Origin: Candidatus Heimdallarchaeum aukensis
Lineage (GTDB): Archaea; Asgardarchaeota; Heimdallarchaeia; Heimdallarchaeales; Heimdallarchaeaceae
Assembly: GCA_021513695.1 (NCBI GenBank)
Contig: CP084166.1
Location: forward strand, 1,664,001-1,728,000
DNA: 64,000 bases
Reading direction: 5' to 3'
Shown here piece after piece: positions 18,832 to 50,370 of this stretch; within the stretch, counting starts at the first letter, position 1; each line of letters opens with the position of its first letter. The notes beneath the pieces were generated by a model. It was not told the origin of the DNA. It saw only the letters and a program-made list of their open reading frames with translations, and made no database searches. Position numbers and translations under genes: made by a program.

Positions 18832-19593
18832 GGTAGTGTCTAGTTTTCTTCCGACAAAATATTTGTGGGGACTCTAATAGTAAGATATGAAAACACAAAA
18901 ACTATCTACTCTTTTTAAGAGATGCAGAGTCCCCAAAAAAATAATAATAAAAGCGATTTATGAATATATTGGTTCAAAGAATGGTTTGAGGACAGTAGCA
19001 TGGAAGAATGGTTTAACGCATCAAACATTATGGTATTGGGTAAAGAAGTTCAGGCTCTTTAGGGAAAGTTTACATAGAGTTGTAGCAGAGAGAGGGGGAA
19101 TGCCAGAGATTATAGTAGTAGATGAAACAGAGATTAAGACCTCTCAAGGCTCAATGTATATGTGGTTCGCGTTAGATCCTTACAACAAGACTTTACTGGG
19201 TTTTAGTATTACTAAAGGACGGAGTAATCTTGAATGTTTACTAACTTTCCGTTATTGGCTCAAATGTTGGGGTTTTAAGCCCCGTATTGTCGTTACAGAT
19301 GCAGGAGTATGGTATCCTGTCTTACTTCGTCTCGGTATCAAAATCTCCGTTATCAAAGGTGGTTTACGCTCCTATATTGAACGTTTTAATGCTACTCTTA
19401 AGAGTTATCGTTGGTTTCATTCTATTCTCCACTGCACTTGTCCTATCCGTGCCGTCTATGGCTCTACTCATCTTTCTGGTTTTCTTACTCTCTTTATGCT
19501 CCATTATAATTTCGTTCGTCCTCATCAGAGCTTGGGACATCCTCCCCTTAGTTCCTTTTTACCTAGGAGGTGGTATAAAAACTAGACACTACC
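18832..19593 (+). mobile_element. compact insertion sequence (762 bp) with perfect 16-bp terminal inverted repeats and a 9-bp target-site duplication
   Basis: Left inverted repeat GGTAGTGTCTAGTTTT (18832..18847). Right inverted repeat AAAACTAGACACTACC (19578..19593) is the exact reverse complement. Both are flanked by the direct repeat GCTGCTACA (18823..18831 and 19594..19602). It encodes a single DDE transposase. Confidence 0.75.
18887..19585 (+). CDS. DDE transposase (rve/integrase-core type) with N-terminal HTH
   Basis: N-terminal HTH (GLTHQTLWYWVKKF). Catalytic D in VVDETEIK, D in VVTDAGVWY, E in ERFNATLK, plus the YNFVRPHQSLG motif typical of rve-core transposases (IS481/IS3-like). Confidence 0.7.
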   Translation: MKTQKLSTLFKRCRVPKKIIIKAIYEYIGSKNGLRTVAWKNGLTHQTLWYWVKKFRLFRESLHRVVAERGGMPEIIVVDETEIKTSQGSMYMWFALDPYNKTLLGFSITKGRSNLECLLTFRYWLKCWGFKPRIVVTDAGVWYPVLLRLGIKISVIKGGLRSYIERFNATLKSYRWFHSILHCTCPIRAVYGSTHLSGFLTLFMLHYNFVRPHQSLGHPPLSSFLPRRWYKN

Positions 19594-19661: not shown

Positions 19662-21947
19662 TTGAATAAACTTTTAGGTGATGATTTGTCATTCATAGAA
19701 CATTTGAATTTAACAGAAGATGAAAAAAAGATATATGCGTTTTTACTTAACTTTGGAAATTTGACAGCGATAGAACTAGCTAATTTTGCAGGAAAGAATT
19801 TTCAGACTGTAATAAATGCTTTAAACTCTTTAATTGAAAAAGGAGCAGTTGGTGAAACTAAAGGATATATCAAGAAGTATTTTGCTAGAATCCCATTATC
19901 ATATCTTGGAGAAAAGAGCTCAAATATTTCCAATCAAATCAACGAAAATCTTACTAAGGCCACTTCTTCTCTAACAAATGAAAAAGAAAAGCTCACAGAA
20001 CTTGCAACCAAAACAAAAACTGTGATTTCAGAAGAAATTGAGCGCAAGAAAAAAAGTTTAGATTCACAGATGAATACAAAAAAAGATGAAATACATTCCA
20101 ATATATCAGAAATTAAAGAAGAGGATTCAAACAAAATTGCAGAAATCCGATCTCAAATGGGAGAGGATATCAATTCTTTAAAGGATGAAATTACTTCAGA
20201 ACTTAGAGATAGTACGGGAAAAGCTTTAGAATCAATTTCTACTTCAAAAAAATCAATAGCGGATTCAAAAACAGAACTCATAACAAACTTAGAAAATAAT
20301 TCAGCAAAAATTATTGAGGAAACTGCAACTTCAGTCAAGACAAAAAGTGATGATATAAATAATGCAGTATCTAATCTTCAACCAAAATTAGAAGAATTGA
20401 AAGCTACCTATGTAAAAGAATTTGATGAAATTAGCAATATCACAAAAACAAACTTTGATCTAGCTAGATTAGATCTAAAGGAATTTAATGATAAACAAGC
20501 AACAAAAACTATTGATTATTCTCAAAACATAACAACAGAATTAGGTAAAACTCTAGACAATGCAACAGTGACAGTAAAAAGCCATTTAGATACGCTCAAT
20601 AATAACTTGGAAAATTTGTTAAATACCAAGACTGAGGAAATGGTACTGAAAATTAAAGAAACCTTAGCATCCTTGAGCAATGAAATCGAAGCAATAAAAG
20701 GTGATCTTGTAGCAGAGATGGTACAACAAAAAAGTGCTGTTTTAGCATCTACATTACTGAAAATAAAAGATGAGCTAGCCATCAAATTCACAGAGTTCTC
20801 AAACGAAGAACAACGAAGGAAACAGGAATTTATGAGTGAGAAAGATATTTTTTCACAAAAATTAGATGCCTATTATAATGAGACTATAGATGAATTTACC
20901 AAGAAAATTGAAGAAATAAAAACTAACGCTGAACAGAAAGTCAGCAGCATTAATTCAAAAGCTTTGGCTGAATTTACTTCACTCTCTGAACAGATAGTGT
21001 CGATCTTGTCTGAACACCAAGAAACTTTTAGTAAGAAAATAAACGACATTAAAAGCACAATTAGTGAAGAATTAGAAAAAAATGCTAATGTAAACAATGA
21101 AACGTTATCTAACATTGAGAATATGCTTAAAGCCATTATTGAAACCAACTCAACAAAAATAGAAGACTTATACGAAAAAACAAAAACAACTATAGAAACA
21201 CAAACAAAGATAATTCAGGAAGCAATTTTAAGCACAGTTGACAAAATAGTCAATGACACATTGGAAACAGCAAAAGCATTAGTTTCCATTTCAAAAGGCG
21301 AGATCGATAAAACAAAGAATTTCATCGAAGAGATGATAGAAAAGGAAATAGAAAACAGTTTTGGAATAATGGAAGAGACACATTCAAATCTCGAAAATCT
21401 AGCTAAAGAACTGATGAGTGTTTCTGTGAAGCTTGGTGAAGATTTTCAAACTTTAGAAGCAAAAACAACAGCAGTTAAAGAACCGGAAATAAATACAACT
21501 GCGATTATAGGTGTTGATGCAGTTGAAGAACACATAAAAGAGATATTGAAAAATGTACAAAGAAAGGGGACATTATTTGTACCAACAAAAAGGTCTGTTC
21601 CAGTAGAAGTCTTAAAAGCATTAAAAGGAACTGTGCAAATTACAGTAGTTACTAAAATTGACGAGGAGATGGACAAAGAGTGGATAAATGATTTGCTGAA
21701 TAATACACAAGCAAACATCATGATCAGAACAATACGAGAAGGAGGATTAGGTGGAGGAATGGGAACAGATATGCCTGTAATCTATGCTGTAGAGAGAGAC
21801 AGTTCTGAGGTGCTAGTAGCAATTGAAGATGAAACTACTAAAGAAGTAGTTGGGATACTATCAAACTCTACCGAATTTGCAAAAGTCCTATCATACACCA
21901 TACTTAGCAATTACTTAAGCGGAGCAGCTTCCAGACAAATAAGGTAA
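19662..21947 (+). CDS. TrmB-like winged-helix N-terminal domain fused to a coiled-coil region of about 600 aa and a C-terminal globular domain
   Basis: N-terminus LTEDEKKIYAFLLNFGNLTAIELANFAGKNFQTVINALNSLIEKGAV is a TrmB/MarR-type wHTH. Residues about 90-650 are E/K/T/S/N-rich heptad-like sequence. The C-terminal 130 aa are non-repetitive. TTG start. Confidence 0.5.
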   Translation: MNKLLGDDLSFIEHLNLTEDEKKIYAFLLNFGNLTAIELANFAGKNFQTVINALNSLIEKGAVGETKGYIKKYFARIPLSYLGEKSSNISNQINENLTKATSSLTNEKEKLTELATKTKTVISEEIERKKKSLDSQMNTKKDEIHSNISEIKEEDSNKIAEIRSQMGEDINSLKDEITSELRDSTGKALESISTSKKSIADSKTELITNLENNSAKIIEETATSVKTKSDDINNAVSNLQPKLEELKATYVKEFDEISNITKTNFDLARLDLKEFNDKQATKTIDYSQNITTELGKTLDNATVTVKSHLDTLNNNLENLLNTKTEEMVLKIKETLASLSNEIEAIKGDLVAEMVQQKSAVLASTLLKIKDELAIKFTEFSNEEQRRKQEFMSEKDIFSQKLDAYYNETIDEFTKKIEEIKTNAEQKVSSINSKALAEFTSLSEQIVSILSEHQETFSKKINDIKSTISEELEKNANVNNETLSNIENMLKAIIETNSTKIEDLYEKTKTTIETQTKIIQEAILSTVDKIVNDTLETAKALVSISKGEIDKTKNFIEEMIEKEIENSFGIMEETHSNLENLAKELMSVSVKLGEDFQTLEAKTTAVKEPEINTTAIIGVDAVEEHIKEILKNVQRKGTLFVPTKRSVPVEVLKALKGTVQITVVTKIDEEMDKEWINDLLNNTQANIMIRTIREGGLGGGMGTDMPVIYAVERDSSEVLVAIEDETTKEVVGILSNSTEFAKVLSYTILSNYLSGAASRQIR

Positions 21948-22947: not shown

Positions 22948-25938
22948 ATGGAAAATATCGAAGCTGTGTGTATCAAAATTCTCTCTCAAAAGGGAGGAGA
23001 AAATCCCCTCACTTCATTATTAGTTGAAATAAACAAAATTCAATATGTTCTTAATCTTTGGACTCCTTGGAATGAAATTGGTGATTACATTCAACCTTAT
23101 ACCAAGATACGTGCTTTTAACGTTGACAAGATAAAAAATAGTGACTCGATCTACTATTCTGCCGGAAAAAAGGCCATAGTTGTCGTAGATCCAGATATTC
23201 TAATTAATGCGTCTACAATTGGAAATATTTCCTATTGCCCAAGAAGTTATTACATCAGTGAAAAAATGGGAGATACTCTTTCTCCTTTATCTGCAATTAA
23301 AGGAACAATTGTTCATGTAGCTTTGAGTACAGCTATCGCTTCTGGAAACTCTCCCACGGAAGTATTATCTGATGTTATTGATTACTATTCAATCCAATTC
23401 GAGCAACTAGGTTACTCTCGAGAAAATATTGAAACAGAAGTCTACAAAATGGTTGAAGCACTAGATCAATTTATTAAAACTCTTCCCACAGAAACAATTC
23501 CCGAGTCACTCTTTTTCTCACCTTACTTAGGAATCAGAGGAAGAATTGATGTACTTGCAGAGCGTATTTACGAACTTAAAACAGCTAAACTTGGTACAGA
23601 TGATGATGCACGATTTTCAGATATGATGCAAGTAACTCTTTATTCTTTTGGTTTAACAGATATGAAGGAAAGTATAGCACAAACAGATGGAACTGTTTTA
23701 TATGTAGGTTCAGAAACTCTTCAACCAAAAGAAGTAAACATTAGTTGGGGAATCTTAAGATATGCTATTCAAATGCGTAATATTGCCTATAGAATCTCTT
23801 TTTTAGATTATATTCCTCCTATTCTTGGCGAAAACCAATCCAGAAAATGCAGTAAATGTTCAGTTCAAGTTATGTGTAGCCTTTTTTGCGCAGGGTTAAA
23901 TCAATTTAGGAATTGTGAAATATGTAATCATTCTCATTTTTGCAGTAAAACAGTTTTATCTGAAAAAGAGCAAGAATATTTCAATAAATATAGTTACTTG
24001 TTGTCTCAGGAAAGGCTAGAAACAAACCGCAATTTAGCTGATTTGTGGAATCTTTCTCTAGAAGAGAGAGTAGAAAAAGGAAAAACTATAGTTAACTTAG
24101 TATTAAAAAATGAAATTTTAGAAAATGGAATAAGGACATTAGTTTTTTCTTGTAACAATCAGTCAGAGATAAGAGAAGGAGATGTTATCATCTTAAGTGA
24201 CGGGGAAGTAATTTCCAATCCAATTAGTACAGGAACTGTGACTAACATTACATCAACATCTATAGAAATAGAAACAAAAGCTCATCCTGAAAAAGTTTCT
24301 GTAATTGATTTGTATTCTATTGATGTGGGATTTAATCGTCAACAAAGAGGATTATTCAACTTTATTTTTAAATCTAATAATTTTAAAGATATAATCTTGG
24401 GGCATAAACCTCCTGTTATAAAAAAAGTCAAAGGAAATTTTGTACCTAACAATTCTTCTCAAAATGAAGCTATCCAAAAGATTCTTGGTACTGAAAATTA
24501 CTTATTGATTCAAGGCCCTGCAGGAACAGGAAAAACACATGTAATTGCCAAATCTGCAATTTTACTCGCTGATAAAAAAGAGAAGGTGCTTTTAACAGCT
24601 TATACAAATCGAGCTGTTGACAACATGTGTAAATATCTATTAGAAAATGGTTATCAAAATTTTGTTAGGTTAGGCTCTACGCATGCCACACAGAGAAAAA
24701 TAAGAAAATACACTTTGTTTTCAATATTGAAGAAAAATAAAAATAAAAAAGTACTCGATCTTCTTGACGAATATCAAATAATTGTTGCCACAACATCCAC
24801 TATTTCTTCACCAGTTTATTCTAATCTTGGAATACAAACAGTAATCGTTGATGAAGCAAGCCAGATGACTGAAACAACTCTGCTTTCTGCTTTAATAGAA
24901 GGTAAGAAATTTATTCTTGTTGGAGACCACAAGCAATTGCCCCCTGTTATTCAAAGTGTGCTGTGTAAAAACGAGGGGTTTGATATTTCATTATTTGAGA
25001 AATTGGCCAAATCTAATCCCCAATTTGTTCATTTACTAACAATCCAATTTAGAATGAATGAGAAAATAATGGAATTTTCAAACAAAAAGTTTTATGAGAA
25101 CAAACTAGAATGTTTTGATAACCTAATTGCACTCCAAAACTTATATGACTTAGGAAATTTCGCAGGAGATTTTCAGCAATTTGAAAATAAGGCTATCTAT
25201 GACCCAAAAATGCCTTTAGTATACGTTCAAGTAAATGGAAAATTCAATCCTGAAAAAAAACTGAATGCTATGGAAGCTGAAATTGTTGCTACAATAGCTA
25301 AAAACTTTTTGAGATTAGGAATAAGCACTGAACAAATTGGAGTTATTGCACCTTATCGAGGGCAAGTAGGTGAAATAAGAAGATATATACCAGGTGTTTC
25401 GGTCGATACTGTAGATAGGTTTCAAGGTTCTGACCGAGAGATTATAATTCTCTCATTAACAGAAACAAATATTCACGGTTTTAAGGGATTTTCAGATGAA
25501 AGAAGACTCAATGTTGCTATTACGCGGGCTAAAAAGAAACTGGTAGTAGTTGGAAACCCAAATCTTACTGAGGGAGAGTTAGGAGAGTACATTAGTTATC
25601 TAAGAGATAATGTAGAAAATGTTCAAGTTAAAGAGATAGAAGAAAGAGAGGAATTGATAGAAAAACAAATAAGAACGGTCATAGTTGCTGATTCCATATC
25701 AAAAGTTGCTTCATTTTTCAAAAAAGTTAAGGCAAAAGGAAAAGAATTATACAAATCAAAAGAAGAAATAAACAAATGTCCAATTTGTTTCCAACAAGTT
25801 TATGAGAATGCTATTCAATGTCCAATTTGTGAAAAACTTTATCATTACACTCACTTAATCCAATGGATTAAAGAAAAAGGAAGATGCCCTTACTGCAAAA
25901 CATCTTTATCTATATATTCTGTCTATGCAGAAGAGTAA
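22948..25938 (+). CDS. Cas4/Dna2-like PD-(D/E)xK nuclease (Fe-S cluster) fused to an SF1B Upf1/Dna2-like helicase, with a C-terminal RING/PHD-like zinc finger
   Basis: N-terminal nuclease carries RecB motifs: GRIDVL (motif II), YELKTAK (E-x-K) and QVTLY (QxxxY). A Cas4/Dna2-type 4-Cys set is present: YCPRSY plus CSKCSVQVMCSLFC. Helicase motifs include Walker A GPAGTGKTHV, motif II VIVDEASQ, VGDHKQLPP, DRFQGSDREIIILS and motif VI NVAITRAKKKLVVVG. The C-terminus reads CPIC-x10-CPIC-x4-H-x2-H-x12-CPYC. Confidence 0.7.
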   Translation: MENIEAVCIKILSQKGGENPLTSLLVEINKIQYVLNLWTPWNEIGDYIQPYTKIRAFNVDKIKNSDSIYYSAGKKAIVVVDPDILINASTIGNISYCPRSYYISEKMGDTLSPLSAIKGTIVHVALSTAIASGNSPTEVLSDVIDYYSIQFEQLGYSRENIETEVYKMVEALDQFIKTLPTETIPESLFFSPYLGIRGRIDVLAERIYELKTAKLGTDDDARFSDMMQVTLYSFGLTDMKESIAQTDGTVLYVGSETLQPKEVNISWGILRYAIQMRNIAYRISFLDYIPPILGENQSRKCSKCSVQVMCSLFCAGLNQFRNCEICNHSHFCSKTVLSEKEQEYFNKYSYLLSQERLETNRNLADLWNLSLEERVEKGKTIVNLVLKNEILENGIRTLVFSCNNQSEIREGDVIILSDGEVISNPISTGTVTNITSTSIEIETKAHPEKVSVIDLYSIDVGFNRQQRGLFNFIFKSNNFKDIILGHKPPVIKKVKGNFVPNNSSQNEAIQKILGTENYLLIQGPAGTGKTHVIAKSAILLADKKEKVLLTAYTNRAVDNMCKYLLENGYQNFVRLGSTHATQRKIRKYTLFSILKKNKNKKVLDLLDEYQIIVATTSTISSPVYSNLGIQTVIVDEASQMTETTLLSALIEGKKFILVGDHKQLPPVIQSVLCKNEGFDISLFEKLAKSNPQFVHLLTIQFRMNEKIMEFSNKKFYENKLECFDNLIALQNLYDLGNFAGDFQQFENKAIYDPKMPLVYVQVNGKFNPEKKLNAMEAEIVATIAKNFLRLGISTEQIGVIAPYRGQVGEIRRYIPGVSVDTVDRFQGSDREIIILSLTETNIHGFKGFSDERRLNVAITRAKKKLVVVGNPNLTEGELGEYISYLRDNVENVQVKEIEEREELIEKQIRTVIVADSISKVASFFKKVKAKGKELYKSKEEINKCPICFQQVYENAIQCPICEKLYHYTHLIQWIKEKGRCPYCKTSLSIYSVYAEE

Positions 25939-36908: not shown

Positions 36909-37093
36909 AAACTAAGGAATGATTATATTCCTTAGCATTTTTTGAAACAACAGATTGAGTATAGAAGTAAAAGCATTGGATAGATTATCCACATAAGAGT
37001 TTTAAGATATATTATTTCAGAAACGAAATTATTTTAATATATGAAAGGTATACACCTTTAAGGAATTTAATTATATAGTTGGAGAAAAATAAA

Positions 37094-37999
37094 ATGTCTA
37101 AAGATCAAATAAAAAGTTTAGTTAATTCAGTAGCTGTATTAAAAGAAATGGTAGAAAATATTGTCAAAGTCGTACAAAAAAGATTTGAAGAGTTTGAGAA
37201 AGAAATTACAGCAATAAAAAATGAACTCCAAGAGATCCGAACAGGAACTAGTGTAGAAAGTTCTTATGATTATACAGCATTAGAAAAGAAGTTAAACAAA
37301 TTAGAAACTCGATTCGAAAAATTAAATGAAAAGTTCCTTCTATCAATCGCTGCAAAAACTGTTGAAAAAAGAGAAACAGAAGTAATTCCTAAAACTCCAG
37401 CAGTAGAACCTAAACCAGCACCACAAGTAACAACTCCAGTAGCAGAATCTAAACCAGCACCACAAGTAACAACTCCAGTAGCAGAATCTAAACCAGCACC
37501 ACAAGTAACAACTCCAGTAGCAGAATCTAAACCAGCACCACAAGTAACAACTCCAGCAGCAGAATCTAAACCAGCACCACAAGTAACAACTCCAGTAGTA
37601 GAACCAAAACCAACTCCTCAAGTAACAACTCCAGCACCACAAGTAACAACACCGCCACCAGAACCAAAACCAACTCCTCAAGTAACAACTCCAGCACCAC
37701 AAGTAACAACACCGCCACCAGAACCAAAACCAACTCCACAAGTAACAGCACCAGCTACAAAACCCGTCCCCTCTAGTGAGAGAGATGTTAGTCCAATAGC
37801 TAAAGAAGCGCCTAGTGCACCAATACCTGCTCCTCCAAAGCTTGAACAACCAACCTCACCTCAATCGTTTAGTCCATCACGCATTGACACTGTAGCAAGA
37901 TCATTAGAAAAAAAAGAAACACCAAGTACAGCAGAGGAACCAGCTTCAGGAGACAAAGCTGAATTGCTAAAAGCGTTAAAGAAATTAGAAGAGTTATAA
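37094..37999 (+). CDS. coiled-coil N-terminal domain + Pro/Thr-rich tandem-repeat protein
   Basis: N-terminal about 100 aa are heptad-like (LVNSVAVLKEMVENIVKVVQKRFEEFEKEITAIKNELQEI). Then about 7 copies of ESKPAPQVTTPVA and 2 copies of a 20-aa PT-rich unit. The track starts at TTG 37079; ATG is at 37094. Confidence 0.5.
   Translation: MSKDQIKSLVNSVAVLKEMVENIVKVVQKRFEEFEKEITAIKNELQEIRTGTSVESSYDYTALEKKLNKLETRFEKLNEKFLLSIAAKTVEKRETEVIPKTPAVEPKPAPQVTTPVAESKPAPQVTTPVAESKPAPQVTTPVAESKPAPQVTTPAAESKPAPQVTTPVVEPKPTPQVTTPAPQVTTPPPEPKPTPQVTTPAPQVTTPPPEPKPTPQVTAPATKPVPSSERDVSPIAKEAPSAPIPAPPKLEQPTSPQSFSPSRIDTVARSLEKKETPSTAEEPASGDKAELLKALKKLEEL
37402..37750. repeat. tandem 39-bp repeats (x5) followed by 60-bp repeats (x2+) within a coding region
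   Basis: AGCAGAATCTAAACCAGCACCACAAGTAACAACTCCAGT is repeated almost perfectly. A GAACCAAAACCAACTCCTCAAGTAACAACTCCAGCACCACAAGTAACAACACCGCCACCA unit is repeated after it. Confidence 0.85.
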
Positions 38000-38067: not shown

Positions 38068-39105
38068 ATGATTTTTCCTTTTATAATTTATCTATTAGCA
38101 TTTGTTTTACCAGCATTAATTTCTCTAGCCATATTTCCAATTTTTATAAGAAAAATGTTATCTATAGGTAAATATGGGATTGATATTCACAAGAAAGAAC
38201 AACCGAAAGTCGCCGAAATGGGGGGTATAGTTACTTTATCTGCAATAATTATTAGTTCAGTAATTCTAATATTATTGATTCAAGATCAGTCAATAAAATT
38301 AGAGATTATGATATTTACCATAACTTTAACTATTGCAGGAATTATAGGTATAGTTGATGATATTCGTCCATTAGGAGCGATTACAAAACCCATACTTTTA
38401 TTATTTGCAGCATTACCAATAATAATTTCTGGATATTTTACTCCGCAACCAGTATTACCGTTTGTTGGAAAAACTAGGCTAACAATTGTTTATTATCTAT
38501 TACTCCCATTTGTAATCTCTGTTACATCTAATGCGGTTAACATGATTGATGTTTATAATGGTTCTATGGCTTCAACTACAATAATTATTTTAATATGCAT
38601 TTTTATCTCAAATGGAATAATAAATGGTTTCCAATTTACTACTCTTAGCACAACCAACATTTACATTTTAATTATGATAGCTGCAGCTTTTTCTTTTTGG
38701 ATTTTCAATCGGTATCCTGCAAAAGTTTTTGCGGGAGATACTGGCAGTTTAATTTTTGGAGCATCACTTGGTGCAATAGCTGTACTAGGTAAGTTAGAAA
38801 TAGTCGTTATTATTGCAATGATTCCTTTAATAATGAACTCTTTTGGAATAATAAGTAGTGTAAAAGGATTGAAAGAAAGAAGAGAAATTAAAGTACGTCC
38901 AACTTCGATGACTGAAGATTGGAAGCTTCAAGCAACAAGAGATTCCCAAGCCCCAATCACATTAGCAGGACTAGTATTACAAAAAGGGCCGCTACGTGAA
39001 GATGATGTAGTTAAAGCTTTTAATATCTTAGTCATCATCAGTGGATTTTTGTCCATAATTACAGCGATATTAATCTGGGTAACAGAAACTTTTTTGGTGA
39101 ATTAA
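38068..39105 (+). CDS. UDP-GlcNAc:dolichyl-phosphate GlcNAc-1-phosphate transferase-like (GT4 / MraY-WecA-AglH family)
   Basis: Polytopic membrane protein with NAVNMIDVYNG(S) and FAGDTGSLIFG motifs, the conserved Asp-containing loops of the MraY/WecA/AglH family. Confidence 0.7.
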   Translation: MIFPFIIYLLAFVLPALISLAIFPIFIRKMLSIGKYGIDIHKKEQPKVAEMGGIVTLSAIIISSVILILLIQDQSIKLEIMIFTITLTIAGIIGIVDDIRPLGAITKPILLLFAALPIIISGYFTPQPVLPFVGKTRLTIVYYLLLPFVISVTSNAVNMIDVYNGSMASTTIIILICIFISNGIINGFQFTTLSTTNIYILIMIAAAFSFWIFNRYPAKVFAGDTGSLIFGASLGAIAVLGKLEIVVIIAMIPLIMNSFGIISSVKGLKERREIKVRPTSMTEDWKLQATRDSQAPITLAGLVLQKGPLREDDVVKAFNILVIISGFLSIITAILIWVTETFLVN

Positions 39106-39378
39106 ATGAAGTATTATAAAATAGTTCCAAGATTGAAGAATATAATAGGATTAGAATTTTTTGTCTTTATAAGTTTTTTAGCTATCTGTGAATTAATCAA
39201 TATATTGATAGTGAATCTTGTTCCAAATACTAGTAATACATTCTGGGCTTTTGTATACGGAATTTTAGAAATAGGAGGAAGTGCAGTCCTAGTAGGAATT
39301 TGGTTGATAATTTGGTACGTTTTGACAAAAAAACTAATGAAAAATGATAACGAAACCGAATCTATAGAAGAGGAATAA
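39106..39378 (+). CDS. small membrane protein (2-3 TM), translationally coupled to the GT4 gene
   Basis: Starts 1 nt after the GT4 stop. Hydrophobic. Confidence 0.35.
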   Translation: MKYYKIVPRLKNIIGLEFFVFISFLAICELINILIVNLVPNTSNTFWAFVYGILEIGGSAVLVGIWLIIWYVLTKKLMKNDNETESIEEE

Positions 39379-39407
39379 AAACAGAAAGAAAAATAAATAC
39401 ATAAAAG

Positions 39408-40073
39408 TTATGAAGAAACTTTTTGTGATTCTAAAAGATATAATCTTTTCTTTAATGAATGATACTTTTTAGCAAATTCTAGGCTAGAGACTTCATAATC
39501 CTCAAACTGTTGTTCAAGTGCAAATAATTCATTCTCAACTTTTAATATTTCATCCTCAAGTAGTTTTGATTTCTCTTGAGCAATAACATTTTCAGAAACA
39601 CTGCTTCTCTCTTTTCGCTCGATCTCTGCTAATTCCCTCTTTTTCTGTTCTAATATTCGAACTAATTGAGATTTTTGATTATTTAACATCGCAATTTCTG
39701 ATGTTGGATCTTCCCATGTAGTTTCAGCATATGAAACCATTTTTGCTCTTACTCTTTGAAACAGACGCTTTACTTCTGCAATTACTTGAAAAATATGATA
39801 AGTTGGCCTCCACCGAGCTAACATTCTCATAGAAAGGATTCCATCTTCGACATTTGGATGTTCCATGGGAGTATTGACATAGATAGTTGGAGGAACATTT
39901 GGAAAATCATTAGGAATAACAATTTCTATTTCAGCATTTTTGGTGCCATTATAGGTTTGAACTGGAACAAAACCTTTCCATATTCTTAAATTGCCATCTT
40001 TAGGTTCAAAACCATAAGCTCTTTCATAAATAAATTGGGCCTCTCGACTTAGAATTTCATCGGAAATGGTCAT
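39408..40073 (-). CDS. UEV (inactive ubiquitin-E2 variant) domain + coiled-coil protein, TSG101/Vps23 (ESCRT-I)-like
   Basis: N-terminal about 120 aa, IEIVIPNDFPNVPPTIYVNTPMEHPNVEDGILSMRMLARWRP, has the E2/UEV beta-hairpin-PP-HPN-x3-G layout. Ser/Met stand where the catalytic Cys would be, so it is non-catalytic. The C-terminal 100 aa are continuous heptad coiled coil. Confidence 0.55.
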   Translation of the reverse strand: MTISDEILSREAQFIYERAYGFEPKDGNLRIWKGFVPVQTYNGTKNAEIEIVIPNDFPNVPPTIYVNTPMEHPNVEDGILSMRMLARWRPTYHIFQVIAEVKRLFQRVRAKMVSYAETTWEDPTSEIAMLNNQKSQLVRILEQKKRELAEIERKERSSVSENVIAQEKSKLLEDEILKVENELFALEQQFEDYEVSSLEFAKKYHSLKKRLYLLESQKVSS

Positions 40074-40278
40074 ATTTAATCAACGCTCCTTGAATCTAAA
40101 TAGCGAATCCACTATAAATAGCTTCCTTTTTAACTTTAAAGAATTCTATTTTATTTACAATATCAAATATTTCATTTCTAAAACTTTGTTTTTGATAATA
40201 GCTAAATATTTTCTCAAAATTAGGTATCTCTAACTTTAAAAATAAAATAGTTTGAGTTAGATTCAAACAGTGGAAAAA

Positions 40279-42114
40279 ATGAGAATCGCTATCATCGATA
40301 TAGAAAAATGTAAACCTTCAAAGTGTGGCAAAGTGTGTTACAAATACTGCCCTCCAGTTAGAATGGGACAGGAAACTATTACATTTGATGGACCAGAAAA
40401 TAAAGCAATAATACATGAAGAACTGTGTACTGGTTGTGGTATTTGCATTAAAAAATGTCCTTTCCATTGTATAAAGATCATAAATTTGCCTGAAGAGCTG
40501 GATGATCAAGTCACACACAGATATAGCATTAATGGCTTCAAATTACATCGACTACCAATGCCTGCATTTGGAAGTGTGATTGGATTAGTGGGTCAAAATG
40601 GTTCAGGAAAAACTACAACCCTTAATATTCTATCAGGAGAGTTAAAACCAAATCTTGGTAATTACGAGAATCCTCCTGAATGGGACGAAGTAATAGAACA
40701 TTACAGAGGAACAATAATACAAGATTACTTTTCAAAGCTAGTAAATAAAGAATTAAGAGTAGTAAAAAAACCACAAAGCGTTGACAGACTACCAAGAGTA
40801 GTTAAAGGAAAAGTCTTCGAATTGTTGAAAAAAGTCGACGAAAGGGGAATTATAGACGAAATAAAAACAGAGTTTTCTTTAGAAAATGTATGGAACAGAG
40901 AGATTTCTAAACTTAGTGGAGGAGAACTTCAACGACTTGCGATTGCTGCCACAGTGGCAAGAGATGCTGATGTATACATGTTTGATGAACCAACAAGTTA
41001 CTTAGATATAAATGAAAGAGTTCGTATTTCTAAATATATTAATGATATGCAAGCAGCAAATAGAACAATTATTGTAGTTGAACATGACTTAGCAATGCTG
41101 GATTATGTAAGTGAAAATATTCATATTTATTATGGACAAGCGGGAGCTTATGGAATTGTAAGTCAACCAATGAGTGTCCGTGAGGGAATAAATGTTTTCT
41201 TAGATGGCTATATACCCTCAGAAAACATGCGATTCAGAGATACAAGTATAGTTTTTAGAAAAGCTTCACTTGCTTCAACAAGCTTATCACATAGAATTGC
41301 AATTAGATATGGAGATATAACAAAAGAATTCGATACATTTAAACTACAAGTAAAAGGAGGAGAAATACATAAGGGAGAAGTTGTAGGAATAATAGGTCCG
41401 AATGGTATTGGTAAAACAACTTTTGTCAAGATACTAGCAGGAGTTCTAGAACCCACTACAATGTCTCAACCTGTTGAATTATTAAGTGAAATCCTTGAAA
41501 TAGATAAGAAACAAGCAGATGATGAAGAGAGAAAAGTTATTGTTAGTCATAAACCCCAATACCTCTACACTGAATCAGAAGAAACAGTCGAAAGCTATCT
41601 AGGAAAAATAAGCCCTGAAATTTTTACGGGGGCATGGTTCAGAACAGAAATAGTTAGACCACTAGATATAGAGAAATTAAAAGATCAACCATTAAGTGAA
41701 TTGTCAGGGGGAGAACTTCAAAGAGTCTCTATTGCAGCGTGTCTATCTAGAAAAGCACATTTATATCTGTTAGATGAACCATCAGCATATATTTCTGCAG
41801 AAGATAGAGTAAGCACTGCAAGAGTGATAAAAAGAGTAATCAGTCATTATGAAGCAACAGCACTAGTAGTAGAACACGATGTTATGATGCTTAATTTTCT
41901 AAGTGATAATCTCATTGTCTTTGACGGAACTCCAGGAAGAGAAGGAAAAAGCACTTCTATTATGTCTCTACAACAAGGAATGAATAAGTTTCTCAAAAAA
42001 ATGGAAATAACTTTCAGACAAGACCCAAAAACCCTTCGACCACGCGTTAATAAGAAAGATTCTCAATTGGATAAAAAACAAAAAGCTGAAGGAAAATATT
42101 TTGTTGCTCTTTAA
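40279..42114 (+). CDS. abcE1: ABCE1 (RNase L inhibitor / Rli1 ribosome recycling factor)
   Basis: N-terminal Fe-S domain (CKPSKCGKVCYKYCP; CTGCGICIKKCP) and two ABC cassettes (GQNGSGKTT / LSGGELQR and GPNGIGKTT / LSGGELQR). Confidence 0.9.
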   Translation: MRIAIIDIEKCKPSKCGKVCYKYCPPVRMGQETITFDGPENKAIIHEELCTGCGICIKKCPFHCIKIINLPEELDDQVTHRYSINGFKLHRLPMPAFGSVIGLVGQNGSGKTTTLNILSGELKPNLGNYENPPEWDEVIEHYRGTIIQDYFSKLVNKELRVVKKPQSVDRLPRVVKGKVFELLKKVDERGIIDEIKTEFSLENVWNREISKLSGGELQRLAIAATVARDADVYMFDEPTSYLDINERVRISKYINDMQAANRTIIVVEHDLAMLDYVSENIHIYYGQAGAYGIVSQPMSVREGINVFLDGYIPSENMRFRDTSIVFRKASLASTSLSHRIAIRYGDITKEFDTFKLQVKGGEIHKGEVVGIIGPNGIGKTTFVKILAGVLEPTTMSQPVELLSEILEIDKKQADDEERKVIVSHKPQYLYTESEETVESYLGKISPEIFTGAWFRTEIVRPLDIEKLKDQPLSELSGGELQRVSIAACLSRKAHLYLLDEPSAYISAEDRVSTARVIKRVISHYEATALVVEHDVMMLNFLSDNLIVFDGTPGREGKSTSIMSLQQGMNKFLKKMEITFRQDPKTLRPRVNKKDSQLDKKQKAEGKYFVAL

Positions 42115-47764: not shown

Positions 47765-47977
47765 TTAACGTATAAAAATACTTAATATTGTCGTAATTAT
47801 CAACACTGTTACCCCAGCAACCACTAACCAAAACACTATATCAAACAGATAAATCATTTTTGGAACTTTTACTTTTTCCCATTTCCTTACTACAGTTTTG
47901 TTTAAATTCTTTTCTGAGCTCATTTTTCCACCTTTCTCCTTATTATCTATACCTTTCCTATTCCACTTTTCTCCCAT
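47765..47977 (-). CDS. small single-pass membrane protein
   Basis: K-rich N-terminus then one TM helix (IYLFDIVFWLVVAGVTVLIITTILSIF). Overlaps the 5' end of the next ORF unless it starts at the internal Met. Confidence 0.25.
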   Translation of the reverse strand: MGEKWNRKGIDNKEKGGKMSSEKNLNKTVVRKWEKVKVPKMIYLFDIVFWLVVAGVTVLIITTILSIFIR

Positions 47978-48465
47978 TTCTGAAATTGTTCAAGTAAGTT
48001 TTCTATTTCCCCGGATACACCTTTTTTGTCTACGAAAACAGTTTTTCCTTTAATTCGTATATTGTCTGTTGGTAAATCTAGCAAAAACTTCTGCAATGCT
48101 AGTTCATCAGTAAATCCTAACAGTTCAGCCATTGTCTCTATTTCTATTTCTTCATATTTCATTAATATTTGTTCAAATTTTGCTTTTCTTTCTTCCTCTG
48201 TTAATTCCTTAATTATTTTTTCTCCTTTCTTCTTTATTTTGACAAATCTGTCTTCTTTTAGCTCGCCCTCTATTTTTCTTTTTTCTATTAGTGATTGAAT
48301 TATAGCTCTTACTTCATCTTCTTCTATACCTGTGATTTCAGTTATTTTATTTACTTCTCTAACCATTTCAAGTTGAGTTAAAATTGTTTGTTCTTTTATT
48401 TGTCTCTGTATTTTTGGAATTTTCTTTTTTATATAATATCTTGAAAATGGACCTATGATTTTCAT
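47947..48465 (-). CDS. small protein with two predicted winged-helix modules
   Basis: Segments TQLEMVREVNKITEITGIEEDEVRAIIQSLIEKRKIEG and ETMAELLGFTDELALQKFLLDLPTDNIRIKGKTVFV each look like wHTH units. The linker is charged and helical. Confidence 0.35.
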   Translation of the reverse strand: MKIIGPFSRYYIKKKIPKIQRQIKEQTILTQLEMVREVNKITEITGIEEDEVRAIIQSLIEKRKIEGELKEDRFVKIKKKGEKIIKELTEEERKAKFEQILMKYEEIEIETMAELLGFTDELALQKFLLDLPTDNIRIKGKTVFVDKKGVSGEIENLLEQFQKWEKSGIGKV

Positions 48466-48664: not shown

Positions 48665-48789
48665 ATTAATTAGTTCTTTTCGCTTTTTGCAGCAGTTTAC
48701 ATTTCTTTTTTCGTAATTGTAACTTGTTAATTGAACATTCTCTTTTAAAAAAGCAATATTTAATTAATTATTCAGTATTTTTTTCTTTA

Positions 48790-50370
48790 ATGAGTAACTC
48801 TTCTACTTTTCAAATTGTTATCCCTCAATCAGGACATCATGAACCAATTACTGTAATTAAGGAAATAAATAGATTAATTTTCACTGGAGATGCCTCAGGT
48901 AAAATTTGTATTTGGAATACATCTTTTGATTCTGAATTAGGTTTTATTAAAGCTCATTCCTCTTCTATTACTGATATTGAATGGTTCCCTTTTTCACCTT
49001 CTATTATCACATCATCACAGGGTTTAGATATTCGCTTATGGTCATGGGATAACTTTTCATTACTGCAATCGCAACAAGTTCATGGGTCCGTTGTTATTAA
49101 CATTGACTTTCTTGGTGACTATATTATCACAGGAGGACGTGACAGATTACTAAAGAAATGGTCTTTTTCTGAGGGAAAATTTCATCTTGTAAAACAGGTT
49201 AAAATTCCTTATTTAGAAGAGTTTTTTGTTTTTGACGATAAAATTCTTATTTCTTGTTCTGACGGATCAATTTCTATTTACGATTCAGATTTTAACCCCT
49301 TATCTTATTTAACCTTGAAAAGAAATAAACTTGTATCTGCAATTAGGAAATCAGGAAAATACCTTTCTACATACAAGAAAGACCCTTATACTGTTATTGG
49401 ACATTTGGAGGGTGTTCGAGGTCTTTCTGTTACTTGTTTCACTTTTGATGAAAAATTTCTTTATTTAGGACACTTCTATGGCATCATTACAGTATGGAAA
49501 AAGAAGGATTTCAAGCTTTCACATATTTTTGTTTCTCACGACAAAAATATTACGTCTATTCATATATTTAAAGGAAAAGTTGTAACAATTGCTCTTGATT
49601 CTAAGGTTGCAGTTTTTGATATAGCCAAAGAAAAACATCATTCCTATGAATTGCCTTATCGTCCTCTATGTTTAATTCAATTAAAAAATGAAAATTTTGT
49701 TATTGGGTTTGATAATGGTTTAATTGGAGTTTATGATAGTAATTTTAATGAAATCAAAAAAAGAGTTCCTGTTCAAAATATTAATTGTTGTTCAATTTCT
49801 CCTGAATTTATTTTAATAGGTACTAATAATGGGTATGTTAAACGATACACTATTCCAAATCTTGAAGAAATAGCACACTTCCATATTAATTCATCAATTC
49901 TAGGAATTTTCTACTATGATAGTATGATAGCTATTATTGATAGTGATAGTAATCTTAGAATATATGAAGCAAATTTAGCTTTTTCAGAGATTAAGCAATT
50001 ATTAATTCCTTTGAGAAAAGAAGAACTAACACTACAAGGATATAATAGATACATTGTTTTGTCTCCCAATTTGATCTTTGATTTTGAAAAGATGGAAATT
50101 ATGAAGGGAGAAGTCTCCTCTTCAACGAAAAAGAAATATTCAGAGTCAATAGTATACTCTTTTTCTTTTGAAACAGGAAATATTATTCTTAACATTGATG
50201 AAAATAAATTAAACATGTTTCTTGAAAAAGGAGACTACTCTGTCTATCCTGAAGGCATTTTGAGAAGTTTGAAAAAACTGATTCACAATGTTTCCTCACC
50301 TTTAAGACAGATTGGTGAATCTACTTGGATTAACATTGACATTCTTGAACAAGCAAGAAAACTCAGATGA
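48790..50370 (+). CDS. WD40-repeat (beta-propeller) protein
   Basis: Multiple WD-like repeats (GKICIWNT, DIRLWSWDN, LLKKWSF, ITVWKKKD) are spaced about 40-45 aa apart. The track starts at TTG 48724; ATG is at 48790. Confidence 0.55.
   Translation: MSNSSTFQIVIPQSGHHEPITVIKEINRLIFTGDASGKICIWNTSFDSELGFIKAHSSSITDIEWFPFSPSIITSSQGLDIRLWSWDNFSLLQSQQVHGSVVINIDFLGDYIITGGRDRLLKKWSFSEGKFHLVKQVKIPYLEEFFVFDDKILISCSDGSISIYDSDFNPLSYLTLKRNKLVSAIRKSGKYLSTYKKDPYTVIGHLEGVRGLSVTCFTFDEKFLYLGHFYGIITVWKKKDFKLSHIFVSHDKNITSIHIFKGKVVTIALDSKVAVFDIAKEKHHSYELPYRPLCLIQLKNENFVIGFDNGLIGVYDSNFNEIKKRVPVQNINCCSISPEFILIGTNNGYVKRYTIPNLEEIAHFHINSSILGIFYYDSMIAIIDSDSNLRIYEANLAFSEIKQLLIPLRKEELTLQGYNRYIVLSPNLIFDFEKMEIMKGEVSSSTKKKYSESIVYSFSFETGNIILNIDENKLNMFLEKGDYSVYPEGILRSLKKLIHNVSSPLRQIGESTWINIDILEQARKLR

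Follow-up and report, generated by a model that had tools for sequence, protein, structure and literature searches.

The stretch of DNA analyzed here, referred to as the window, is a 64-kb segment of contig CP084166.1 (positions 1,664,001–1,728,000) from Candidatus (Ca.) Heimdallarchaeum aukensis, and the gene under study encodes a 221-amino-acid (aa) protein with a ubiquitin E2 variant (UEV) domain at its N-terminus, followed by a long helical region. The region from 38068 to 40073 consists of three genes, and the UEV gene lies tail-to-tail with the other two, which encode a transferase homologue and a small membrane-type protein. A database comparison matched the 221-aa protein at 100% identity to K9W45_07335 of Ca. 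Heimdallarchaeum aukensis, which confirms the assignment to the Asgard archaea made in the initial annotation, a reading of the sequence alone. Several contigs of independent NCBI, JGI, ENA and Logan assemblies carry the same protein sequence, which is therefore not a one-off product of assembly. Residue numbers refer to the 221-aa protein and coordinates to the 64-kb window. The gene and its parts are as follows.

39408–40073, minus strand: gene for the UEV domain, stalk and predicted steadiness box; 221-aa open reading frame (ORF) with an ATG start, corresponding to K9W45_07335 (Ca. Heimdallarchaeum aukensis)
39738–40061, minus strand: UEV (inactive E2-fold) domain, residues 5–112, from Pfam, AlphaFold2 (AF2) and Foldseek
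39852–39860, minus strand: HPN motif, His72-Pro73-Asn74, codons cat-cca-aat, kept despite the loss of the active-site Cys
39831–39833, minus strand: Ser81 (TCT) where E2s have the catalytic Cys, from the UBE2A alignment and the family column
39708–39737, minus strand: short flexible linker, residues 113–122, with a predicted local distance difference test score (pLDDT) below 50 at 115–122; variable and gapped in alignments
39501–39707, minus strand: helical stalk, residues 123–191, from the AF2 models
39414–39566, minus strand: steadiness-box-like hairpin, residues ~170–220, from hhalign, BLASTP and Foldseek
40081–40118, minus strand: putative expression signals, from a reading of the sequence only

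The putative signals, read by eye, are a TATA-like TTTATA at 40113–40118 and a possible ribosome-binding site of the GGAG type, AGGAG at 40086–40090, both upstream of the ATG (40073); oligo-T runs follow the stop codon.

The E2-fold domain

The N-terminal domain matches the Pfam families UQ_con (E = 2.1e-11, 44 bits, residues 23–108) and UEV (PF05743; E = 1.1e-6, 29 bits) above their curated cut-offs, and a Foldseek search of the PDB returned E2s (Rad6, UbcH5, Ubc13, Ubc9 and Mms2 complexes) with a probability of 1.00. The ORF and the ubiquitin-E2 fold proposed in the initial annotation are thus upheld; the segment PNDFPNVPPTIYVNTPMEHPNVEDG, given there as the signature of the fold, corresponds to residues 54–78. 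The closest solved structures by sequence are those of Rad6/UBE2A. In the alignment, HPNV-EDGILSMRML of the window protein pairs with HPNVyADGSICLDIL of Rad6/UBE2A, so that Ser81 is aligned with the catalytic Cys and Met82 with the Leu after it, exactly the Ser/Met replacement that had been noticed, and the whole protein contains no cysteine. Among 23 aligned sequences (the window protein and 22 close homologues) HPN is unchanged throughout, and Ser, Ala, Asp or Glu, Glu being the commonest, takes the catalytic position in every case, a column that is Cys in 11 of 13 sequences of a Cys-bearing E2 outgroup.

The full-length AF2 model (mean pLDDT 80; 83–90 across residues 21–110) contains a helix at residues 5–18, four strands and helices at 83–86 and 94–107. 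After the last of these the chain exits into the linker and stalk, and both of the C-terminal helices of true E2s are missing. Of the canonical E2 features, the protein therefore has the HPN motif and lacks both the active-site Cys and the two C-terminal helices. The domain is by definition a UEV, an inactive and little-diverged E2 fold that has kept HPN. Since the catalytic Cys is lost, it cannot carry a ubiquitin thioester; by analogy with other UEV domains, the protein most likely binds ubiquitin non-covalently. An extended β-hairpin 'tongue' like that of the TSG101 UEV was also considered, but the strand lengths in the model fit ordinary E2s and no such claim is made.

The missing cysteine could in principle be a sequencing error in an active E2, with TCT read for TGT. 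The Ser81 codon is one base away from a Cys codon, and the UQ_con score exceeds the UEV score. However, the identical sequence occurs in several independent assemblies, none of the 22 homologues has Cys in this column (most have Glu), the protein is free of cysteine throughout, and a stalk stands in place of the two C-terminal E2 helices. The family-wide loss of Cys and the agreement of independent assemblies refute this explanation, and the probability of an active E2 is negligible.

Linker, stalk and C-terminal hairpin

The coiled-coil stalk of about 100 residues that had been predicted to follow the UEV domain is borne out by two AF2 models, in which residues 123–220 are helical (a helix at 123–191, a loop at 192–196 and a helix at 197–220). 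The stalk is interrupted at 158–160 in the full-length model and is a single helix in the isolated C-terminal model. In the latter, made from residues 121–221 (pLDDT 90), the 69-residue helix folds back on a 24-residue helix. Pfam matches along the stalk are weak and of coiled-coil type (Tropomyosin, ADIP and Mod_r); the Mod_r match (Vps37, PF07200) covers residues 100–213 with E = 0.046 and 14.1 bits against a cut-off of 30.1.

The hairpin at the end of the protein consists of an acidic helix, EDEILKVENELFALEQQFEDYE, a five-residue loop and a basic helix, EFAKKYHSLKKRLYLLESQK, and is the most conserved part of the close family in the 23-sequence alignment. An acidic/basic charge pattern of this kind has been described for Asgard and eukaryotic steadiness boxes (Lu et al., bioRxiv 10.1101/2023.07.25.550441). 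When the C-terminus of the narrow family was compared using hhalign with a profile of Asgard steadiness boxes, built from longer Asgard UEV-Vps23 proteins and denoted A4, a match with a probability of 94.6% was obtained (E = 6.8e-8) over 49 columns corresponding to residues 170–218. The A4 profile in turn finds, over the whole hairpin and with marginal E-values of 0.014–0.15, yeast Vps23 (2f66/2f6m, 2p22 and 2caz) and human TSG101 (6vme_B). The C-terminus also matches the Vps23 steadiness-box segment of a UEV-Vps23-Vps28 fusion protein, described below, with E = 9.6e-5. [quoted passage not shown] From these sequence and model comparisons it is concluded that the C-terminus probably forms a divergent steadiness-box hairpin, which would give the protein the architecture of Vps23.

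The A4 profile also has a weak match (E = 0.088, residues 102–149) to Prometheoarchaeum OST1/ribophorin I (8WHN), a structure with a cytoplasmic four-helix bundle (PMC11417166). Despite the glycosylation gene near the UEV gene, this match, to a four-helix bundle of another protein, was dropped as chance. The LExxxxxGxI-type helical motif behind it also matches phycobilisome linker proteins.

Relatives of the window protein

The 22 close homologues come from metagenome-assembled genomes of Heimdallarchaeaceae type, are 48–75% identical to the window protein and 218–223 aa long (apart from one 174-aa fragment). The NCBI label of close homologues is already 'ubiquitin-conjugating enzyme E2 variant'. 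When 1.8 billion representative proteins were searched with a profile, 754 relatives were recovered at E ≤ 0.001, and for ∼60 of them the match extended over the full length. Among 54 aligned members of this wider family, Vps23_core is matched by 18 (best E = 1.4e-7), these being the longer proteins of 236–300 aa, and Mod_r by 11 (best E = 3.1e-5). One relative that passes the Vps23_core cut-off of 26.8 bits, P0038 (28.6 bits), could be aligned by tblastn with the entire window protein, with 33% identity over 252 columns (E = 6e-34).

In a neighbour-joining tree of the UEV domain, which serves as a rough guide only since it was built from ∼110 columns with no bootstrap, the narrow family adjoins the clade of the fusion proteins. 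Short relatives without HPN, typified by P0028, which has a faint GvpG match at residues 159–197, form a clade apart from the window protein. P0028, P0025 and P0032 lie on contigs of 1–4 kb, and their gene context is uninformative.

A paralogous fusion in the ubiquitin–ESCRT cluster

Relatives of 445–490 aa match UQ_con, Vps23_core and VPS28 in a single chain. HeimAB125_14070 (= OLS31938.1) is one of these UEV-Vps23-Vps28 fusions, which are typically ∼470 aa long (examples are P0048, P0247 and L013). The fusion gene is part of a cluster with the order Arf-like GTPase, ubiquitin, ThiF-type E1, fusion, 101-aa protein, EAP30 (Vps22), Vps25, Vps4 and two Snf7 genes. Both the stand-alone gene and the fusion are present in all five of the related genomes that were checked.

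GCA_021399395.1: stand-alone P0214 on JAAFKJ010000115; fusion P0247 on JAAFKJ010000007
JAUVXV010000001.1 (one 701-kb contig): stand-alone gene within 201–222 kb; fusion within 321–339 kb
GCA_054001415.1: stand-alone P0003; fusion P0048
GCA_964514425.1: stand-alone P0006; fusion L031
Ca. H. endolithica (complete genome, sister species): stand-alone K9W46_07915, which shares a 90%-identity cluster with the window protein; full ubiquitin–ESCRT cluster

The UEV domain of the window protein is 48% identical to that of fusion P0048, and in a BLASTP comparison with HeimAB125_14070 (E = 3e-30) the UEV domain pairs with the UEV domain and the hairpin with the Vps23-type steadiness box. Among the known systems compared here, the fusion has the closest UEV domain, and the two types share the pattern HPNV-D/E-x-x-LSMR around the dead active site as well as a homologous stalk, a Vps23-type hairpin and the same genomes. 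The fusion differs in its additional Vps28 N-hairpin and Vps28 C-terminal domain, and in its place between the E1/ubiquitin genes and those for Vps22, Vps25, Vps4 and Snf7, whereas the window gene lies elsewhere. By sequence and genomic position the two genes are paralogues, one fused to Vps28 and kept in the cluster, the other short and stand-alone, and the window gene is the less-studied second Vps23-like copy in a lineage whose main ESCRT-I protein is, in its relatives, encoded elsewhere. The initial annotation had read the gene as the TSG101/Vps23-type subunit of ESCRT-I; the architecture stands, whereas the definite article is not supported, given the cluster-resident fusion in five related genomes.

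Ubiquitin binding is experimentally established for the fusion HeimAB125_14070 from AB_125 (Hatano et al., 2022; PMC9192718) and is predicted for the window protein. Asgard UEV domains bind ubiquitin, including that of an unclustered 'Heimdall UEV-Vps23', and dissociation constants of 4–7 µM have been reported for Heimdall UEV constructs (bioRxiv 10.1101/2023.07.25.550441, including Table S1). The 'Heimdall UEV-Vps23' assayed by surface plasmon resonance (GCA_016839875.1 JAEOTK010000223.1_89) was compared with the present family, whose members P0017 and P0003 belong to different assemblies.

In every locus that includes this region (L009:6388-6693 and L013:9454-9760, together with 26 more, L014-L041), the gene directly downstream of the fusion encodes a conserved helical protein of ∼101 aa, which belongs to no Pfam family and does not resemble the steadiness box (hhalign 9.7%).

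Comparison with known systems

Asgard UEV-Vps23 proteins (asCOG005829/007313), described in 2022–2024, are known from Odin, Hel, Hod, Wukong and other lineages (Hatano et al., 2022, PMC9192718; Lu et al., bioRxiv 10.1101/2023.07.25.550441), and the Heimdall, Kari and Gerd genes have been reported to lie apart from ubiquitin clusters (Lu et al.). With a Cys-less UEV, a helical stalk and an acidic/basic hairpin, in the window protein a probable steadiness box, the two have the same three parts; the published proteins often retain HPN and can be aligned with it from end to end. However, at 221 aa the window protein is shorter than these proteins of 236–300 aa, its linker of ten residues contrasts with their long, Pro/Ser-rich linker, its hairpin falls below the detection of Pfam Vps23_core, unlike that of the Vps23_core-positive members, and its gene co-exists with that of a second, ESCRT-clustered UEV protein.

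The order of UEV, stalk and probable steadiness box in the window protein is that of eukaryotic TSG101/Vps23, and the hairpin superposes on both the yeast and the human proteins. The window protein differs from them in having neither a proline-rich region nor a PTAP-type partner context and in retaining HPN. A likeness to eukaryotic Vps37 consists in a stalk helix and a steadiness-box hairpin that would take the third place in the headpiece. Vps37, unlike the window protein, lacks a UEV domain; the Mod_r scores do not reach the curated cut-off, and no claim of orthology is made.

A further group, 'UEV_X' (e.g. OLS29001.1; Gerd-, Heimdall- and Kariarchaeia), is uncharacterized and has been described as a UEV with a GvpG-like helical segment, at ∼170–210, in place of a Vps23 domain (Lu et al., bioRxiv 10.1101/2023.07.25.550441). 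By description only, the window protein resembles it in being a short UEV protein with a helical C-terminal segment at ∼170–210, in its location outside ubiquitin/ESCRT clusters and in its occurrence in Heimdall-related lineages. Unlike that description, it has no GvpG (PF05120) match at E ≤ 1, and the best fits to 'UEV_X', the HPN-less proteins of P0028 type, belong to the separate clade mentioned above.

The Asgard UEV-Vps23 proteins, the Heimdall fusion and this further UEV group are thus already published (PMC9192718; PMC10936438; bioRxiv 10.1101/2023.07.25.550441). Because the family has been published and its homologues already carry the E2-variant label, the window gene, which encodes a eukaryotic-signature protein of a known kind, introduces no new principle.

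Proposed role of the protein

Having a Cys-less E2 fold, a helical stalk, a hairpin resembling the steadiness boxes of Vps23, and a co-occurring paralogue in the fusion, the window protein is probably a stand-alone ubiquitin adaptor of Vps23 architecture, with a UEV domain, a stalk and a steadiness-box-type hairpin; this explanation is favoured with moderate confidence. The headpiece of ESCRT-I consists of three packed steadiness-box hairpins. The UEV domain would capture ubiquitin or ubiquitylated cargo, and the stalk of ∼70 residues, together with the hairpin, would dock the protein into a steadiness-box assembly. Its probable partner would be the lineage's own UEV-Vps23-Vps28 fusion, encoded in the ubiquitin–ESCRT cluster elsewhere in the genome. 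In this way the window protein may be a member of an ESCRT-I complex and may contribute to membrane remodelling.

A more specific arrangement can be proposed tentatively, in which the ESCRT-I of Heimdallarchaeaceae would be made of two chains, the fusion providing two headpiece hairpins and the stand-alone protein providing the third hairpin and a second stalk helix, in the position of Vps37. The proposal is compatible with three observations: a steadiness box was sought in the unassigned cluster proteins x101, x136 and x212 and all three were negative, and the cluster yielded no further steadiness-box protein; both genes accompany each other in each of the genomes listed above; and two Vps23 copies accompany each Vps28 in Odinarchaeal ESCRT-I, the second of them in this position (PMC9192718). 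No Vps37 is known in Asgard archaea (PMC9192718). Although the arrangement is possible rather than probable, it would represent a living intermediate in the origin of Vps37 from a Vps23 duplicate, with later loss of the UEV domain, and a third headpiece subunit of this kind would bear on the apparent absence of Vps37 from Asgard archaea and on the origin of the heterotetrameric eukaryotic ESCRT-I.

Several observations weigh against a Vps23-like adaptor. Pfam Vps23_core (PF09454) gives no match at E ≤ 1 for the window protein or its closest relatives, and HMMER searches of the PDB with two profiles of the C-terminus (mixed short-type, A3; narrow-family, A8) return no Vps23 or TSG101 chain at E ≤ 10. 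The Foldseek E-values for the hairpin, 0.7–4, are not significant, a 50-residue hairpin being a simple shape. The steadiness box is consequently supported by hhalign, Foldseek and BLASTP and not by Pfam. The UEV domain is structurally nearer to canonical E2s (Rad6, UbcH5 and Ubc13) than to TSG101, and no TSG101 entry is found in the top 50 Foldseek matches in the PDB. The UEV gene adjoins housekeeping genes, not ubiquitin or ESCRT genes, in all loci examined, and the neighbours that it consistently keeps are only two, the genes for a small membrane protein and for a glycosyl-phosphate transferase. Clustering with ubiquitin or ESCRT genes is usual in many Asgard lineages, though not strictly required of a Vps23. 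Finally, the search for ESCRT genes recovered a cluster with ubiquitin, E1, ESCRT-II, Vps4, ESCRT-III and the fusion in related genomes; however, none of the searches recovered the fusion from H. aukensis itself. A contig scan gave H. endolithica and 28 other loci, a metagenome scan yielded only two endolithica-like fragments, and word-indexed protein searches gave no match on the 3,081,793-bp contig. By analogy with the sister species H. endolithica, the fusion is presumably present in H. aukensis as well.

The nearness of the domain to canonical E2s and its retention of HPN would also suit a cofactor of Mms2/Uev1 type, in which the inactive E2 domain, paired with an active one, would set the type of ubiquitin chain, the coiled coil serving for oligomerization only; Cys-bearing E2s are indeed also encoded in Heimdallarchaeal genomes (PMC9192718). 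However, the whole window protein, and not merely its E2 domain, aligns with UEV-Vps23 proteins, and the UEV gene has no E2 gene beside it. Mms2/Uev1 proteins are not known to have a stalk or a steadiness box, which also counts against this explanation, and we consider it improbable.

The Vps23-like adaptor remains the favoured explanation. The Asgard UEV-Vps23 proteins are central evidence for ubiquitin-directed ESCRT sorting before the eukaryotes. Heimdallarchaeaceae rank among the nearest known relatives of eukaryotes, and they retain two genes of Vps23 type that differ in architecture and in genomic location. To the published picture the present analysis adds the predicted steadiness-box-type hairpin of the short Heimdallarchaeaceae protein, its explicit paralogy, within the same genomes, with the cluster-resident fusion, and a conserved and unexplained pairing with an AglH-like transferase operon.

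Genomic neighbourhood

The neighbours of the UEV gene in the window are as follows.

38068–39105 (start alternatively 38059), plus strand: polyprenyl-phosphate HexNAc-1-P transferase homologue (MraY/WecA/AglH/Alg7 family), PF00953
39106–39378, plus strand: 90-aa small protein with hydrophobic, membrane-type segments, from the ORF list; no family
40270–42114, plus strand: ABCE1, neighbour of the UEV gene

The transferase is a membrane protein of 345/348 aa that matches PF00953 with E = 1.8e-28 and the TIGR00445 mraY model with E = 2.2e-20, under the cut-off of the latter. It had been called a GT4 in the initial annotation; the name fits the Pfam family Glycos_transf_4 (the polyprenyl-phosphate HexNAc-1-P transferase family) and does not fit CAZy GT4. 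The 90-aa protein starts directly behind the stop codon of the transferase, with no base in between, is separated from the UEV gene by a tail-to-tail gap of 29 nt, and has no Pfam or NCBIfam family. As described originally, the UEV gene lies outside any ubiquitin or ESCRT cluster, with the transferase, the small membrane protein and ABCE1 as its neighbours: no ubiquitin or ESCRT gene is found within ±10 kb of it, and the 64-kb window contains no second UEV.

In all eight related loci, down to 48% identity, the UEV gene is tail-to-tail with a membrane protein of 89–111 aa and a PF00953 transferase. On the other side ABCE1 is usual, but in two loci it is replaced, by a WD40 gene and an M28 peptidase, and the trio persists. 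The wider neighbourhood is syntenic in the clade (L15e, TrmO, ABCE1, Fpg, SBDS and exosome subunits). The persistence of the trio is weak evidence for a possible functional link, because the genes are convergent and all of the loci come from one family-level clade.

These neighbours raise a different explanation, namely that the protein is a receptor of ubiquitin or a ubiquitin-like protein that acts independently of ESCRT, forms homo-oligomers through its coiled coil and hairpin, is possibly tied to the AglH-like transferase and membrane protein, and corresponds to 'UEV_X'. The stand-alone gene is never clustered with ubiquitin or ESCRT genes, the trio has outlasted two independent flank rearrangements, and the role in ESCRT-I is already filled by the fusion. 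The missing direct match to Vps23_core would likewise fit, and the faint GvpG match of P0028 resembles the published description of UEV_X. However, the UEV gene is convergent with its neighbours and is therefore not co-transcribed with them, the synteny may simply be inherited within one family-level clade, the GvpG-faint, HPN-less relatives form a separate clade in the crude tree, and the hairpin is homologous to Vps23-type steadiness boxes according to hhalign, Foldseek and BLASTP. We regard this explanation as rather unlikely; if it is correct, a ubiquitin receptor would here have been recruited for a different process.

Other genes near the UEV locus were also noted. The plus-strand gene at 37079–37999 encodes a 306-aa protein whose N-terminal coiled coil precedes some eight Pro/Thr-rich repeats of ∼13 aa in tandem (…ESKPAPQVTTPVA…) and which has no Pfam or NCBIfam family. 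In most related loci a gene of no known family, encoding 255–295 aa, stands in this position beside the transferase. A 172-aa protein encoded on the minus strand (47947–48465) has a PCI-domain match (E = 1.4e-5), and the adjacent gene on the plus strand (48724–50370) encodes a 548-aa WD40 protein that has many β-propeller matches, including weak ones to proteins of Vps11/Vps41/HPS5 type. The PCI-domain and WD40 genes are kept near the UEV locus in relatives.

Other genes in the window

The plus-strand gene at 22948–25938 encodes a 996-aa protein in which a Dna2-like PD-(D/E)XK nuclease is joined to an SF1 helicase (AAA_11/AAA_12) and which matches the IGHMBP2-family model TIGR00376 with E = 2.7e-92. 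Its C-terminus contains a RING finger (zf-RING_2, residues 942–984, E = 3.4e-5) that scores 24.5 bits against a cut-off of 27.3. The protein may be a fusion of a helicase and an E3 ligase, in a genome with a ubiquitin system.

Two further plus-strand genes lie upstream of it. At 18887–19585, a 232-aa ORF with a weak integrase-core match below the cut-off (rve_3, E = 1.8e-5) may be the remnant of a mobile element. The gene beside it, at 19662–21947, encodes a 761-aa protein whose N-terminus is a winged helix of TrmB type and which also has a long region of helical repeats.

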